From sequence record MT446396.1: a stretch of 64,000 bases of DNA, one strand, 5' to 3'. Source of the DNA: Escherichia virus TH22. The position numbers and the translations under genes were made by a program. The notes beneath the pieces are model-generated. The model was given only the letters and a program-made list of their open reading frames with translations. It made no database searches and was not told where the DNA came from. Below are positions 862 to 58,051 of the stretch, in pieces. The stretch's first letter is position 1, and each line of letters starts with the position of its first letter.

Positions 862-1434
862 ATGGCGAGTTTAATTTATCATTACGCGGCAATGAATGCA
901 GGCAAAACAGCTTCATTGCTGACTGCAGCTTATTCCTATAAAGAGCGTGGAATGAGTGTGCTTTTGCTAAAACCTGTTATTGATAATCGGGACTCGGAAT
1001 CTGAAATTAAATCACGTATTGGTATTAGCCAGGAAGCAAACCTGGTAACGGCCGACATGAACCTGTTTGAATTCTATAAATGGGCCGAGTCTCAAAAGGA
1101 TATCCATTGTGTCCTGGTCGATGAAGCTCAATTTTTGTTACCAGAGCAAATTGACCAGTTAGCACGAGTGGTTGATAATTATAATATCCCCGTTATGTGT
1201 TACGGGCTAAGAACAGATTTTCGGGGTCAGTTATTTCCCGGTTCGGCCAGACTTCTGGCTATTTCGGATAAACTGGTTGAATTAAAGGGCGTCTGCCATT
1301 GCGGCCGGAAAGCAACCATGACCGCTCGAGTAATCGACGGTGCTGCTGTAAAGGTCGGCGAGCAAGTATTGGTCGGTGGGAATGAATCGTACGTATCTTT
1401 ATGCAGGAAACATTGGCTCGAATTGACAAGCTGA
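862..1434 (+). CDS. tk: thymidine kinase
   Basis: 190 aa; P-loop AMNAGKTASLL, Zn-ribbon CHCGRKA...C; closely matches T4 Tk. Confidence 0.95.
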   Translation: MASLIYHYAAMNAGKTASLLTAAYSYKERGMSVLLLKPVIDNRDSESEIKSRIGISQEANLVTADMNLFEFYKWAESQKDIHCVLVDEAQFLLPEQIDQLARVVDNYNIPVMCYGLRTDFRGQLFPGSARLLAISDKLVELKGVCHCGRKATMTARVIDGAAVKVGEQVLVGGNESYVSLCRKHWLELTS

Positions 1435-1441
1435 GGTCCTT

Positions 1442-1717
1442 ATGATATATAAGATTTGGACGTATATCTCTATTTTTGTTATTGCTGGAATTGCATTTAT
1501 CCCCACACAAACAGATAGCGAGAGATATGAAAGGGAAATTGAAATAGTAGCAAGCACGTACCATTCTGTTAATAAAGAATGCCCGAATAAAAATGGAATA
1601 AATTTACAAAAAGCACATTATATGCTGACTGTTACTAGCCCAGTGCAAAGAATATGGGTTGATAGACATTTTTCTGATTTATTTGCAATATATTGTTTCA
1701 AGTTTAAAAGATTATAA
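1442..1717 (+). CDS. hypothetical membrane protein
   Basis: 91 aa with N-terminal hydrophobic segment. Confidence 0.35.
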   Translation: MIYKIWTYISIFVIAGIAFIPTQTDSERYEREIEIVASTYHSVNKECPNKNGINLQKAHYMLTVTSPVQRIWVDRHFSDLFAIYCFKFKRL

Positions 1718-1720
1718 ATA
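1713..1720 (+). promoter_or_regulatory. T4-type late promoter core TATAAATA
   Basis: exact TATAAATA about 70 nt upstream of the rI-like start. Confidence 0.45.
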
Positions 1721-1791
1721 CAGTTACTAACTAGTATTCCGCTATGTTAAGGCTGCAAAGCGTAATCATGACCAACAATAAGGAGTCCTTT

Positions 1792-2088
1792 ATGGACCTT
1801 ATTCGAGGACTTTCTCTAAGTCTATTACTAATGGGCTGTTTAGGCCCAAATCTGTCCTCTGCTACAGATGGTAAATTTACCCAGTACGCAGATAGTGCGA
1901 TGCAAATCTATTCGCAATTCAAAGAACCCAGCGTCGAGCAGTCCGAACAATTTTGGGCTTTTATTAAAACCGAATGGAACAATAAGAGTCAATGTGTAAA
2001 TGAAATCACATGTCAAATTGATGGCCGGGCTGCTGCAGTCGAATACGCTAAATTAATGAAGGTAAAATTGGAAGATGAAATTCGATGA
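1792..2088 (+). CDS. rI: RI antiholin (lysis inhibition)
   Basis: 98 aa from ATG with AGGAG SD; N-terminal signal/SAR-like segment; C-terminus (SVEQSEQFWAF...C...C...KVKLEDE) resembles T4 RI; downstream of tk as in T4. Confidence 0.55.
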   Translation: MDLIRGLSLSLLLMGCLGPNLSSATDGKFTQYADSAMQIYSQFKEPSVEQSEQFWAFIKTEWNNKSQCVNEITCQIDGRAAAVEYAKLMKVKLEDEIR

Positions 2089-2458
2089 TTTCGTAACAGG
2101 TCGTGGGTCTGAGGTGGATTCATACATTGGGTGGCTATTAGTCTCTTTAGCATATTTTAAGTCCGCCCATCTTGAAACCAAAAGTTACGCCCGCCATAAA
2201 GCTTATGATTTCTACTTCACAGAAATCCAAGGTCCACTCGACCAGTTCAGTGAGCAATGGTTAGGTTACAGCGGGAAACAATACAAAGCTGCATTACCGT
2301 CCGCCTCGGACTTGCCGAAAGATACAATTTTGTTTTTAGATGAAATGATTAAAAGCTCTGAAAGAGTCTATAAAGTTGTGCCCAAGGCTATTCAATCGAC
2401 TCTGGACGATATCGTTGGCGTTTTCTTTCAAACCAAGTACCTGTTAACATTAGAGTAA
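2075..2458 (+). CDS. hypothetical protein
   Basis: 127-aa ORF, coupled to rI. Confidence 0.35.
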   Translation: MKFDDFVTGRGSEVDSYIGWLLVSLAYFKSAHLETKSYARHKAYDFYFTEIQGPLDQFSEQWLGYSGKQYKAALPSASDLPKDTILFLDEMIKSSERVYKVVPKAIQSTLDDIVGVFFQTKYLLTLE

Positions 2459-2462
2459 TTCA

Positions 2463-2492
2463 AAAGGTCTGCCTTCGGGTGGACCTTTTTTC
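2463..2492 (+). terminator. stem-loop + T-run terminator
   Basis: GGTC..TTCGG..GACC hairpin followed by TTTTTT. Confidence 0.5.
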
Positions 2493-2497
2493 ATTTA

Positions 2498-2558
2498 GGG
2501 GTTTACATCCTCATCAAAAGGGTGTACTATTATCCCATCAACTACTGAGGAGAATACA
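2498..2558 (+). promoter_or_regulatory. early promoter with conserved leader (family A: CATCAACTACTGAGGAG)
   Basis: GTTTACA -35-like, TACTAT -10-like, then conserved leader and SD before ATG 2559. Confidence 0.5.
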
Positions 2559-2762
2559 ATGAGAATTAAAAATATCAAGATTGATGCAGTTAATACTGGT
2601 GATGAGGTTGTTATCTATCTTAATGATTATGCAATCTTTATGGACAGTGCCACTGATGAAGAAGTGGTTGAACTCTTACAGAAAGCTCCATTTGAACTGT
2701 GTGAAGAAGATGCTACCCATCTTTCATCAGCAATTTTCTCATTATCATATGTGGTGGAATAA
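2559..2762 (+). CDS. hypothetical protein
   Basis: 67-aa ORF directly after family-A leader. Confidence 0.35.
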   Translation: MRIKNIKIDAVNTGDEVVIYLNDYAIFMDSATDEEVVELLQKAPFELCEEDATHLSSAIFSLSYVVE

Positions 2763-2998
2763 TGAAACTTACAAATACCATGGTTTCATTGGAATATGAA
2801 ACCAATAATCATATTCTTGAAATTAAGATATTTGATGACGGAAGCATATTTGCTGATTACCGCGGATATAGAATTCGCCTGGAAAAGGAACAGCTTAAAG
2901 ATGTTGAGCTTTTTAAAGAAACATTAAAAAGTTGTGGGTGTAAACTGAAAAATACTCAAGTCCAAGAATTAATTTCTACCATCAACAAATACTGGTGA
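2762..2998 (+). CDS. hypothetical protein
   Basis: 78-aa ORF, coupled. Confidence 0.3.
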   Translation: MKLTNTMVSLEYETNNHILEIKIFDDGSIFADYRGYRIRLEKEQLKDVELFKETLKSCGCKLKNTQVQELISTINKYW

Positions 2999-3002
2999 TA
3001 TT

Positions 3003-3185
3003 ATGTTAACTACTGAACAAATTGAAAAAATTATTAAACTCGCCTGGCATATTGAAAATGCATCTAATGACCTGGCAGTGGAATTATGTGAAGGCTATTC
3101 ATATTCTGGAATAGAACAGTGTAAGCGTGATTTGAATAGTTCTAAAGCTAATTTGGTTGAATATCTGAATGGGTTGAAAGCATAA
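3003..3185 (+). CDS. hypothetical protein
   Basis: 60-aa ORF. Confidence 0.3.
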   Translation: MLTTEQIEKIIKLAWHIENASNDLAVELCEGYSYSGIEQCKRDLNSSKANLVEYLNGLKA

Positions 3186-3442
3186 TGGCTGTTGGATTTG
3201 CAAAAGATGGCGCTGAACAGTTAGAGATGGAAGCGGTTGTACAAGCCGCTATCACCCATGCGAGAGCACAGGTTGCAGTTGAAAGGGAGTCTGCTGAATT
3301 CTGTTTTGACTGCGACGAAAAAATTCCTGAAGCGCGGAGACAAGCGATTAAGGGTGTGATATATTGTGTTGGTTGTCAATCAATGCATGATGAAATTTTT
3401 AAACGTGAGCCACGTAACTGTTGGCATAGGAGCATGAGATGA
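3185..3442 (+). CDS. DksA/TraR-type C4 zinc-finger protein
   Basis: CFDC-x17-CVGC spacing typical of DksA/TraR C4 zinc fingers. Confidence 0.55.
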   Translation: MAVGFAKDGAEQLEMEAVVQAAITHARAQVAVERESAEFCFDCDEKIPEARRQAIKGVIYCVGCQSMHDEIFKREPRNCWHRSMR

Positions 3443-3533
3443 TTTACTATCTTGAACCTTGGGCTTGGTTAATAATGGCTGTAGGGCCTGTTTTAATTGG
3501 TTTATTCTTTTCATGGTTAGCGAGGAAACTGTA

Positions 3534-3749
3534 ATGTTATACGACCCAAGTGGTAATTCTGAAAATGGTGTGATTGTTCTGGAGCCTGAGCATCCGACTG
3601 GTGAGGTGTACCGTACCGTTGAAGTGTGTGAATGTAATTTCGTTGAAGGAAATACCGGTGGGATTTCCATTGAGCAAGATGATGATGTTATTTACCTGGA
3701 TGCAAGCCAAGTAGAAGCTCTTTATAGTATTTTAAAACATAACCGTTAA
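3534..3749 (+). CDS. hypothetical acidic protein
   Basis: 71 aa from ATG with GAGGAA SD. Confidence 0.3.
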   Translation: MLYDPSGNSENGVIVLEPEHPTGEVYRTVEVCECNFVEGNTGGISIEQDDDVIYLDASQVEALYSILKHNR

Positions 3750-3761
3750 GAGGAAATTAAA

Positions 3762-4316
3762 ATGATTATTGAAAAATCTGGGTTGTTTGGTGACCTGACT
3801 GCCGATGTAATTGATAATGCAATCGTGCTTAAACAAGAAGATGATACAGTCGTTTTGACCATTCAAGATATTCAGAACCTGTACAAGTTGTCTGTTATTG
3901 ATGCAGAGCAGTATATTCGAACTCATAATCGTGTCTTTAAAATTAACGATGAAGTTGTGGCTTGGTTGTATCGAGGTGAAAATGGCTTTAATCTGGAAAC
4001 CGAATGGGCTTGTTTATCCATTAAAAACCGTTCAGAATTTTTAGAGAAAATTTTTAAACTGTTCCAAGAAGAGTGTGTACCTGAGCTCGAATGGAAAATC
4101 CATGGTTGTGATGCTATTATGCATTCAAGCGAAACCTTTGAAGGTGATGAAGAAGGTGATTATAATACTGAATTCAGTGTCCACCAACATCAAGGTCGCG
4201 ATATGTTATCTATCATCCAGACCCACGATGGTGAAGCTGAAGTAGTATTCACTAAAGACGAATTAAAAGTTCTGGTAAAATACCTGAACACTGTTATCCC
4301 AACTATGAACGCATAA
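3762..4316 (+). CDS. hypothetical strongly acidic protein
   Basis: 184 aa, rich in Asp/Glu. Confidence 0.4.
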   Translation: MIIEKSGLFGDLTADVIDNAIVLKQEDDTVVLTIQDIQNLYKLSVIDAEQYIRTHNRVFKINDEVVAWLYRGENGFNLETEWACLSIKNRSEFLEKIFKLFQEECVPELEWKIHGCDAIMHSSETFEGDEEGDYNTEFSVHQHQGRDMLSIIQTHDGEAEVVFTKDELKVLVKYLNTVIPTMNA

Positions 4317-4325
4317 GGAATTACA

Positions 4326-4778
4326 ATGATTATTAATGAAAACGCCTGGCACGTTAAATTACACGACCGTTTTTATGGCCATTATTCTCGCCCACACTCT
4401 TTGTGTGCTTACTTCTGGAAAATTGTATGGGTCTGCTTTATTTGTTCTGTGCTTGCAGGTAGTACAATCTTCGCCTTAACTGTTGCAGGTGCTGGTGTAT
4501 TGGAGCAGTTCTTTGTATTAAGTACTCCTGTTGGTTTAGGGTTAGGGTTTATTTTAGGACTAGCTACAATGGCTCTTATTTTGGCGGTAGCATTTGGTTT
4601 AATATATGGTCTAATGAATTTATGGGCCTGGTATGATTTACGTAAAGAAGAAAAAGAATGGGAACGAATTAAAGCCAAACGCGAAGGAAAGGAAATTAAA
4701 GAAAACGTTTTCATTCAATATATCAAAGCTCGTAAATCTAAGATGTGTCCGGTAATCCATTTTGAGGCGAAGAAATGA
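4326..4778 (+). CDS. hypothetical integral membrane protein
   Basis: 150 aa; 2-3 hydrophobic helices then charged KEEKEWERIKAKREGKE tail; stop overlaps next start (ATGA). Confidence 0.45.
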   Translation: MIINENAWHVKLHDRFYGHYSRPHSLCAYFWKIVWVCFICSVLAGSTIFALTVAGAGVLEQFFVLSTPVGLGLGFILGLATMALILAVAFGLIYGLMNLWAWYDLRKEEKEWERIKAKREGKEIKENVFIQYIKARKSKMCPVIHFEAKK

Positions 4779-5785
4779 GAACAGTTATGAAGGGATATTT
4801 TGGGTCCCATCTTTATGGAACAAGTACTCCGGAATCTGATGTCGATTTTAAGGAAATCTTTGTTCCACATCCACGTGATATTCTGTTAGGTACGGCAATG
4901 AATCATACAAACTTGAACACGAATAACACGGCATCCAAAAACACTAAAGACGATGTTGACCACGAGCTTTATAGCCTGAAATATTTCTTTAAACTGGCGG
5001 CTGAAGGTGAAACTGTTGCTCTGGACATGATTCACACTCCGGCTAACCTGGTAGTCAAATCCGATTTACCAGATGTATGGAAGTTTATCCAAGACAACCG
5101 TTCACGGTTCTATACGACCAACATGAAAGCATATTTGGGGTACGTCCGTAAGCAAGCTTCAAAATATGGTGTTAAAGGTTCTAGACTGGCTGCTTTACGT
5201 GGTGTACTGGCAATTGTTAACCAGATTCCTGAACAGTGGGTTGACTACCAAGAAGATGGTTCGACTAAACAACGTCGCACTAAAGTTGAAGATATTAAGC
5301 ATCGTCTCCCAGAGAATGAATTCTGTGAATGGGTATTCCATAACCATGAGAAAACCGGTCCTCAAACGTTTTATACTGTTCTCGGTCGCAAATACCAAAC
5401 TACTTTGTCATTAATCGAGCTTAAGCAATCTCTGAATAAACTTGATGCCGAATATGGTGAACGCGCTCGTAAGGCCGAAGCTAACGAAGGTATTGACTGG
5501 AAAGCTCTGAGCCACGCTTATCGTGCTGGATATCAGTTGAAGGAAATTTATATGACCGGTGACCTTCAATATCCTTTACGAACAGCCCCATTTATCCTTG
5601 AAATCAAACAAGGGCTACATGCTTTTAAAGATGTACAAGCTGAACTTGAAGCAATCGTCGATGAAGTCGAAACCAATGCCATCTGGGCGGCCAAGAACGG
5701 CATGCCCGATAAGGTAGACATGAAGTTCTGGGACAAGTTTGTTGAAGAGGTATATCTTGACAACCACAATTCCTATTATCGTTAA
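4775..5785 (+). CDS. Pol-beta superfamily nucleotidyltransferase (family unresolved)
   Basis: 336 aa; N-terminal GSHLYGTSTPESDVDF (GS...SDxD) nucleotidyltransferase signature, further Asp in VALDMIH; long helical C-terminal region. Confidence 0.6.
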   Translation: MRTVMKGYFGSHLYGTSTPESDVDFKEIFVPHPRDILLGTAMNHTNLNTNNTASKNTKDDVDHELYSLKYFFKLAAEGETVALDMIHTPANLVVKSDLPDVWKFIQDNRSRFYTTNMKAYLGYVRKQASKYGVKGSRLAALRGVLAIVNQIPEQWVDYQEDGSTKQRRTKVEDIKHRLPENEFCEWVFHNHEKTGPQTFYTVLGRKYQTTLSLIELKQSLNKLDAEYGERARKAEANEGIDWKALSHAYRAGYQLKEIYMTGDLQYPLRTAPFILEIKQGLHAFKDVQAELEAIVDEVETNAIWAAKNGMPDKVDMKFWDKFVEEVYLDNHNSYYR

Positions 5786-5980
5786 TGAAGAAATGAAGGT
5801 CTTCTTATCATATGGAAGACCCAATAAAGGTCGGCGCTGGTATCTCGAAGCAGTCTGTCGGAAAACTGGCAGACGAATCAACATTAAGTACACGTGTAAA
5901 CCAACTTCCAAACAAACCAGGCGTTTTGTTAACTGGGCTATCAATATTATAAGATTCCATAATTTTTGGAGTGCAATCTA

Positions 5981-6004
5981 AGGACCCTTCGGGGTCCTTT
6001 TTTA
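5981..6004 (+). terminator. intrinsic terminator
   Basis: GGACCCTTCGGGGTCC hairpin + T-run. Confidence 0.7.
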
Positions 6005-6084
6005 TTTTAAAAAGTAGTGTACAACAAGATGGTCATGAGGCATAATGATTCCATACTGAGTTACCAAATAAACTGGAGAATAAA
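6005..6084 (+). promoter_or_regulatory. early promoter with conserved leader (family B: CCATACTGAGTTACCAAA)
   Basis: AGTAGTGTACA, CATAAT -10, conserved leader, GGAGAATAAAATG. Confidence 0.55.
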
Positions 6085-6291
6085 ATGTTAGAATTAATCA
6101 AAGCTGCTGGTGAAAAAGGTCTGATGGTTAACACTCGTGACCCTGAACAACGTCAAGCATTTGGTGAGTTAAAAGCCAAAGGTCTGGTTAAAGCATCCCT
6201 TGGTATTGGTAATGCTTTGCGTGTGACTTTGACCCCTGCAGGTAAAGCAATGTTCTTCCCTAAACCATTACCAAAACGTCGTCGCAAGTGA
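6085..6291 (+). CDS. hypothetical basic-tailed protein
   Basis: 68-aa ORF after promoter cassette. Confidence 0.35.
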   Translation: MLELIKAAGEKGLMVNTRDPEQRQAFGELKAKGLVKASLGIGNALRVTLTPAGKAMFFPKPLPKRRRK

Positions 6292-6297
6292 GGAATT

Positions 6298-6600
6298 ATG
6301 AAAAAGTATGAAATTGACATGATTGATGCATGTCTGAAATCTGCTGACCATTTTAAATTGAAAATGCACAAGTTAAGAGGAATGGTCAAAACTCCAGAAG
6401 AGAAGAAACGTTATGCTCTGAAGGAGAAATGTAAAGCTCTTATCATGATGGATAAGCTGCAAATGGTCGCCGCAGAAGCTCACAGGACAAGAAAAGCAGA
6501 GGCTCTTGGTGTTTATATGGCTGAACAGATTCATCGCGCACAGCAAGCCGTTAAGAGCGCCTGGTTCAGTGGTGAAAATACTGAAAGAACTTTTAATTAA
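6298..6600 (+). CDS. hypothetical protein
   Basis: 100-aa ORF. Confidence 0.35.
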   Translation: MKKYEIDMIDACLKSADHFKLKMHKLRGMVKTPEEKKRYALKEKCKALIMMDKLQMVAAEAHRTRKAEALGVYMAEQIHRAQQAVKSAWFSGENTERTFN

Positions 6601-57804: not shown

Positions 57805-57978
57805 ATGAGACATTTCTTTGCAATGGGTTACTTATTTGTTTTAGCACTATTTGTTATTACAGGAGCCTTTATAGCCTTTGGCGCTCCATTTAATGATAAA
57901 GTTGCTGTTACTATGTGCTTTAGTGGTGGGTATATCTGTTTTGAACGCTTATGCAAAATGTGTGGTATATATGAGTAA
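57805..57978 (+). CDS. hypothetical small membrane protein
   Basis: 57 aa hydrophobic; below track cutoff. Confidence 0.3.
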
Positions 57979-58051
57979 TTTCCATAATGAACATGTGATG
58001 CAATGGCATCGTCATAATCTGAAATTAACTGGCGTCTTCGGGCGCCCTTGA
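57971..58051 (+). CDS. stp: Stp peptide (activator of host anticodon nuclease PrrC via EcoprrI)
   Basis: 26-aa [29 protein letters not shown]; length, position (ndd-stp-52) and sequence match T4 Stp as recalled. Confidence 0.6.

Follow-up and report, generated by a model that had tools for sequence, protein, structure and literature searches.

An RlaP-family nucleotidyltransferase, the ortholog of T4 NrdC.11, and its gene neighbours in Escherichia virus TH22

A stretch of 64,000 nt from Escherichia virus TH22 (MT446396.1), here called the window, contains an ORF for a 150-amino acid membrane protein (4326..4778, + strand) whose end overlaps, in the tetranucleotide ATGA (4775..4778, +), the start of an ORF for a 336-amino acid protein carrying the signature of the Pol-beta nucleotidyltransferases (NTases; 4775..5785, +). 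Both ORFs and their overlap are present as originally predicted. The question which the pair raises is what reaction the NTase carries out for the phage, and whether the membrane protein takes part in it. The original prediction treated the two as a coupled module, and proposed either RNA-end modification or repair, or a signalling or anti-defence function.

The locus and its transcription unit

The source phage is a T4-like coliphage resembling VR7 and VR25, and window positions 3000-6100 show 94-97% identity to VR25, VR26, VR7 and UPEC01. The + strand of the window is in reverse orientation relative to the T4 map; along it tk.4 (macro domain), tk, rI and rI.-1 are succeeded by homologs of the mobD.x genes, the membrane protein gene and the NTase gene. 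The gene of the Tk.4 homolog (13-477, +; Pfam Macro E=4.4e-8) belongs to another transcription unit and precedes the NTase gene by about 4 kb. Macro domains act on ADP-ribose phosphate products, among them the ones that arise when an RNA 2'-phosphate is removed.

Nine + strand genes are found between two terminators. The upstream one (2462..2489, +), a hairpin resembling an intrinsic terminator with a 12-pair stem and a T run, ends the preceding rI / rI.-1 unit. It is followed by a promoter-like site, TTTACA-17-TACTAT (2502..2530, +), which is a consensus match only; the promoter scan gave as many sites in total as expected from shuffled sequence, and only its position 5' of the nine-gene unit recommends this one. 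The first six genes of the unit (2559..4316, +) are, from their ORFs and family matches, homologs of T4 mobD.5-mobD.1. Among them are genes for a DksA/TraR zinc finger protein (3185-3442, +; Pfam), an acidic DUF7189 protein (ending at 3749, +; Pfam) and a y05I/MobD.1 homolog (3762-4316, +; family match). The DUF7189 ORF was called as 3459-3749 (+) with a TTG start, but since the DUF7189 match begins only at residue 26 the true start is probably the ATG at 3534, giving a protein of 71 amino acids with a pI of 4.1. The zinc finger, the acidic proteins (pI 4.1-4.5 in this unit), the closing terminator (5980-5999) and, far downstream, stp (57971-58051) had all been listed in the original prediction and are all present.

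The membrane protein and NTase genes follow, with a GAGG 9-10 nt 5' of the NTase ATG; translational coupling of the two genes through the ATGA overlap is possible. The unit had been described as an operon of eight genes, which overlooked a ninth, a gene for a basic protein of 62 amino acids (5793..5981, +) that starts 7 nt past the NTase stop. Its presence rules out that 5786-5980 is a spacer or specifies an RNA. The unit ends at an intrinsic terminator, GGACCC-TTCG-GGGTCC followed by a T run (5980..5999, +). Thus, three closely packed genes, for the membrane protein, the NrdC.11 ortholog and the small basic protein, close an operon of the early type. An Rfam scan of 2400-6400 gave no meaningful match, and PADLOC found none for five proteins of the nine-gene unit.

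The small basic protein (pI 11.5) matches phrog_8921 (E=1.6e-32) and Pfam DUF7279 (E=8.4e-8). Its gene was found in 211 phage records, often unannotated (for example in RZ, MN01, QL01 and IME341), and lies directly 3' of the NTase gene in every examined locus where it was detected, among them 14 of the 80 loci scanned in viral contigs. It was not found in T4, where nrdC.11, unlike the NTase gene of the window, is without a small basic gene on its 3' side.

Family, fold and catalytic residues of the nucleotidyltransferase

The NTase is 82.1% identical to T4 NrdC.11 (AAD42629.1) over residues 1-336, the two proteins being of equal length. Its map position also matches, the order tk, rI, rI.-1, mobD.5-mobD.1, nrdC.11 being conserved. 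On sequence and gene order it is the ortholog of NrdC.11. It had been stated that the T4 core set includes no such enzyme; the T4 ortholog contradicts this, as do the NrdC.11 homologs that tblastn revealed in 1547 phage records. Among 1.84 billion representative proteins, searched exhaustively, there are 3054 relatives. The unannotated genome of phage TH15 encodes an identical protein (100%, tblastn), while 99% identical proteins of VR7 and VR25 are public under the labels 'nucleotidyltransferase' or 'NrdC.11'. Many other GenBank records call the NrdC.11 orthologs 'thioredoxin', apparently inherited from the gene name nrdC, and one record describes its ortholog as an HNH homing endonuclease; both labels are annotation errors. 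The match of the nrdC.11 orthologs to a nucleotidyltransferase family (COG3541) was published in 2006 (PMC1524935), and the enzyme family and its predicted role have already been described by others; this is no new kind of system.

The protein matches Pfam PF10127 (RlaP) with E=1.2e-10 and 41.9 bits against a Pfam cut-off of 23, in an alignment which spans only residues 8-134, or profile positions 25-142 of 249; it also matches phrog_388 ('nucleotidyltransferase'; E=2.7e-132). The catalytic signature, G10-S11 ... D22-x-D24, lies in residues 10-25 (GSHLYGTSTPESDVDF; 4802..4849, +), and the alignment of homologs identifies D84 (codon 5024..5026, +), in the sequence ALDMIH, as the third catalytic acidic residue. 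Among 64 homologs with 34-83% identity, G10, D22 and D24 never vary, and S11 and D84 are kept in at least 90%; in the C-terminal part R230, H247 and R250 are invariant, and K243 is conserved in 90% or more. Because of the PF10127 and phrog_388 matches and this conservation, the hG[GS]...DxD signature is no chance motif.

An AlphaFold model derived from the 64-homolog alignment has a pLDDT of 93.5 and comprises an N-terminal alpha/beta NTase domain, a long helix (118-149), a beta-rich insert (154-208) and C-terminal helices (213-335). The region after the NTase domain, which had been described as a helical domain, is not purely helical in the model. The best matches of the model in fold searches are NTase structures, with no chain described as RlaP among the matches; the PDB yielded nothing significant by sequence or by profile. 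The assignment to the Pol-beta superfamily made in the original prediction is upheld by the above-threshold PF10127 match, phrog_388, the conserved residues and the NTase fold of the model. Of the RlaP, CCA-adding and CD-NTase families listed there, only RlaP/PF10127 is supported. We conclude that the protein is a member of the RlaP/PF10127 family with an intact catalytic triad.

Two enzymes of this family, PfRlaP and PaRlaP, encoded in rtcB operons of Pseudomonas, were characterised in a 2025 preprint (PMC12776372). Both attach one or two NMPs to the 3'-OH of RNA, prefer Mn2+ and discriminate little between NTPs; ends with a 3' phosphate, DNA and proteins are not substrates (PMC12776372). The broken end of a cleaved-tRNA mimic was preferred, full-length tRNA- and rRNA-sized species in total RNA were labelled too, and aminoacylation was higher for repaired tRNA lacking one anticodon-loop nucleotide (PMC12776372). 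The same work named T4 NrdC.11 as an RlaP family member and proposed RlaP as an antidote to RloC-like nucleases, which excise a nucleotide after the cut (PMC12776372), a prediction made earlier for phage RlaP genes (PMC7824862). In the PfRlaP crystal structure a cleft lies between the NTase domain and a C-terminal helical domain. The window NTase shares with the Pseudomonas enzymes PF10127, the three catalytic acidic residues and the succession of an NTase domain and a helical domain, and relatives of the window protein, like the Pseudomonas genes, stand beside RNA repair genes. The two groups differ in that the assayed enzymes belong to cluster 1a and T4 NrdC.11 to cluster 5 (PMC12776372), that only the N-terminal domain of the window protein aligns with the RlaP profile, and that Pseudomonas RlaP is partnered by RtcB/RtcA whereas the partners in the phage clade are 5'-phosphate ligases (Rnl1/Rnl2) and healing enzymes of the PNKP type. 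The beta-rich insert of the model may be a further difference.

RNA repair genes and the membrane protein in the neighbourhood of NrdC.11-type genes

No RNA repair gene was found in the 64-kb window by tblastn with Pnkp, Rnl1 and Rnl2 seeds, and in T4 pseT and rnlA lie some 78-81 kb from nrdC.11. More distant members of the clade were taken from viral and metagenome contigs, and their neighbours were identified by seeded jackhmmer searches, the matches being checked by Pfam. One block, on a metagenomic contig of 8.5 kb from a distant T4-like phage (L117, the same as L140), holds in this order and on one strand the genes for Rnl1, the membrane protein homolog, ThyX, a metallophosphoesterase, a kinase (AAA_33) and the NTase (991-6311); this may be an ancestral arrangement. 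Elsewhere an HD+AAA_33 protein, Rnl1 and the NTase are encoded by directly adjacent genes (L144), or the NTase is accompanied by a phosphoesterase and Rnl1 (L148) or by a phosphoesterase (L145). Rnl2-like ligase and PseT-like genes are located within a few kb of the NTase gene in L125 and L133, and in phiM12 the NrdC.11-type gene is flanked by two RNA ligase genes. A PNKP 3'-phosphatase domain (PF25109, E 1e-42 to 1e-47) abuts or overlaps the NTase start in three loci (L169, 173-640; L190, 1254-1697; L219, 799-1281), and in a fourth a stand-alone domain of this type is one gene away (L172, 5716-6180). These four HAD_PNKP genes upstream of the NTase, all on environmental phage contigs, specify proteins of about 150 amino acids without a kinase domain. 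A phosphoesterase suggested by jackhmmer in L173 failed to be confirmed by Pfam.

Pairwise identities between the NTases of the repair-linked loci are for the most part 40-56% (77-84% among L169, L190 and L219), so the linkage to repair genes occurs in at least eight lineages. In the metagenome scan RNA-repair genes were near the NTase gene in about 10 of 80 loci, many of which are short. Direct adjacency was seen in about 6 of the 80, versus some 2% per locus expected from T4 gene density, a crude estimate given the many short contigs. A 3'-phosphatase gene directly upstream is what one would expect for an enzyme requiring a 3'-OH. These neighbourhoods favour a role of the NrdC.11-type NTases in tRNA repair and, as evidence from the phage clade itself, independently back the idea that NrdC.11 restores nucleotides lost to anticodon nucleases of the RloC type.

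The membrane protein matches phrog_944 (E=1.5e-53). Two long hydrophobic helices form a transmembrane hairpin in its model, which at a pLDDT of 67 was used for topology only; the soluble N-terminus contains the motifs M-I-N-x-N-S-W-H and L-C-x-Y-F-W, and the basic C-terminus ends in K-x-C-P-x-I-x-F. An indexed protein search gave close relatives only (54% identity or more), and the wider family was built from tblastn matches and the loci themselves. H9, C27 and C141 are invariant in an alignment of 13 sequences (A3) and are aligned in eight further members, and distant phrog_944 homology is credible because motifs at both soluble ends are conserved. A two-helix hairpin would put His9, Cys27 and Cys141 on one side of the membrane, making a metal site or a disulfide possible.

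How closely the membrane protein gene is tied to the NTase gene depends on the distance at which one looks. It precedes the NTase gene on the same strand in all but one of 40 loci (39) that have an NTase with 59% or more identity to that of the window, and likewise in T4-like phages of Acinetobacter, at spacings ranging from direct overlap to some 2.5 kb. It is a long-standing neighbour of the NTase in this phage lineage. Its sequence falls to 27-38% identity where the NTase holds 68-83%. In T4 the slot directly 5' of nrdC.11, which the membrane protein gene fills in the window, is occupied by the gene for the MobD homing endonuclease, and the membrane protein gene is absent; in VR26 mobD is inserted between the two genes. 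The 5' junction of nrdC.11 is thus an insertion site of MobD (T4, L001 4238-5017; VR26, L002/L058). Most loci with a more distant NTase have no membrane protein gene within 6 kb, and of the 80 loci in the metagenome scan just 3 have it near the NTase gene. Conversely, Ceceduovirus phages and three metagenomic contigs possess the gene with neither an NTase nor a repair gene nearby. The neighbours of the homologs in L054, L055 and L057 include no RNA-repair gene within 5 kb and no Pfam family at E<=0.01, apart from one match far below threshold. The NTase has no need of the membrane protein. What survives of the coupled module is the ATGA overlap and the close-range synteny; the MobD insertions in T4 and VR26, the rarity of the pairing in the metagenome loci and the occurrences of the membrane protein without an NTase speak against an obligate unit.

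Two cases outside the Tevenvirinae place the membrane protein among RNA repair genes. In L117 its homolog comes just after Rnl1, and in Pseudomonas phage PAK_P4 it is encoded between the phosphoesterase side of a cassette and an Rnl1-kinase pair. The PAK_P4 cassette (L028, 1943-5764), which specifies an HD phosphohydrolase, a metallophosphoesterase, an HTH protein, the membrane protein homolog, an Rnl1-type RNA ligase and an AAA_33 kinase, resembles the RNA-repair set, in an unrelated phage. Two cases out of about six lineages are suggestive but too few for a functional claim, and the membrane protein may be what is left of a cassette for repair in an ancestor. It is conceivable, if doubtful, that the phrog_944 protein, with His9, Cys27 and Cys141 on its cytoplasmic ends, is a real accessory of phage RNA repair, perhaps a tether or regulator of the repair enzymes at the inner membrane. 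In that case its pairing with NrdC.11 in the Tevenvirinae would be a vestige of an ancestral cassette for Rnl1, the membrane protein, a phosphoesterase, a kinase and RlaP, whole in L117 and in part in the Pseudomonas Pakpunavirus, and the DUF7279 protein perhaps an RNA-binding cofactor of the NTase.

Proposed role and alternatives

The best explanation, and in our judgement the probable one, is that the NrdC.11 ortholog is an RlaP-family NTase which adds untemplated nucleotides in the course of tRNA repair. After cleavage by an RloC-like anticodon nuclease of the host, the phage polynucleotide kinase-phosphatase would strip the 3' phosphate from the 5' half of the tRNA. The NrdC.11 ortholog would then add one or two untemplated nucleotides to the broken RNA 3'-OH, the dephosphorylated 5' half being the likeliest substrate, and the phage RNA ligase would reseal the tRNA that had lost nucleotides. 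The observations beneath this scheme are orthology, family membership, the intact triad, the fold and the repeated adjacency to genes for RNA end-healing and sealing; the activity itself, the substrate and the biological role are inferred. Of the hypotheses offered at the outset RNA-end repair is the best supported, from the neighbourhoods of the relatives and the published RlaP biochemistry (PMC12776372). The predicted context is that of the T4 Pnkp (PseT) and Rnl1 pathway directed against PrrC, since PNKP phosphatases, kinases and Rnl1 adjoin the distant NrdC.11-type genes. The classical pathway, in contrast, is without an NTase step, which would be needed only after nucleotide loss, as in damage of the RloC type. 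Laboratory T4 tolerates deletion of nrdC.11-mobD.3 (PMC9825161); an anti-defence role that matters only under certain conditions would agree with this, without being proved by it.

The chemistry predicted for the family would be identical if the enzyme tailed RNA 3' ends outside repair, for instance to direct host or phage transcripts, or the 3' ends of tRNAs, towards decay, stabilisation or maturation. The labelling of full-length tRNA- and rRNA-sized species by the characterised enzymes, their low NTP specificity and the lack of linkage between the Tevenvirinae gene and repair genes would all suit such a function, which we nevertheless consider unlikely: the recurrent neighbours of the relatives, genes for a 3'-phosphatase, a kinase and Rnl1, suggest broken ends and not intact transcripts as the target, and it was the cleaved-tRNA mimic that the characterised enzymes preferred. 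That the target is not RNA at all, and the NTase AMPylates a protein, such as a HEPN RNase toxin of the host, or else a small molecule, in the manner of MNT/ANT enzymes, is rather improbable. The MntA model match reaches 13.2 bits against a cut-off of 60 while PF10127 is above threshold, the neighbours of the relatives are RNA end-healing and sealing enzymes and not toxins, and the characterised RlaP enzymes left proteins unlabelled.

The order of the two genes, membrane protein then NTase, recalls the Hailong system, and HalB is the top structural match of the NTase model. By this analogy the NTase would make an oligonucleotide, for instance oligodeoxyadenylate, that gates the adjacent membrane protein or, in an anti-Hailong module, keeps the HalA channel of the host closed. 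The likeness to HalB amounts to 13% identity and a shared minimal fold, and the idea is at odds with both the PF10127 profile assignment and the dispensability of the membrane protein gene. HalA/HalB differ from the window pair in belonging to a different Pfam family and in being encoded by the host and not by a phage, and the window pairing is not conserved. In its published description HalA has a TM domain and a cytoplasmic crown, which the much smaller two-helix hairpin of 150 amino acids does not resemble. We think a Hailong-like function very unlikely. A signalling NTase of the cGAS/DncV type or a CCA-adding enzyme is suggested only by the generic hG[GS]...DxD motif, common to the whole superfamily, and can scarcely be entertained. 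The signalling hypothesis of the original prediction receives no backing from the fold matches, which contain no CD-NTase, or from Pfam or PADLOC, which gave no cGAS or CD-NTase match; and the CCA-adding family, also named there, is absent from the fold matches, with no Pfam match to the PolyA_pol/CCA head domain.

Two minor new leads come from the analysis: the small basic gene, left unannotated in many records, and the conserved membrane protein with its sporadic association with RNA repair genes. T4 NrdC.11 has been on record as a nucleotidyltransferase match since 2006 and as an RlaP since 2025, and the idea that it serves in the repair of RloC damage is testable in T4, a classic model phage for which mutants and hosts are already available.
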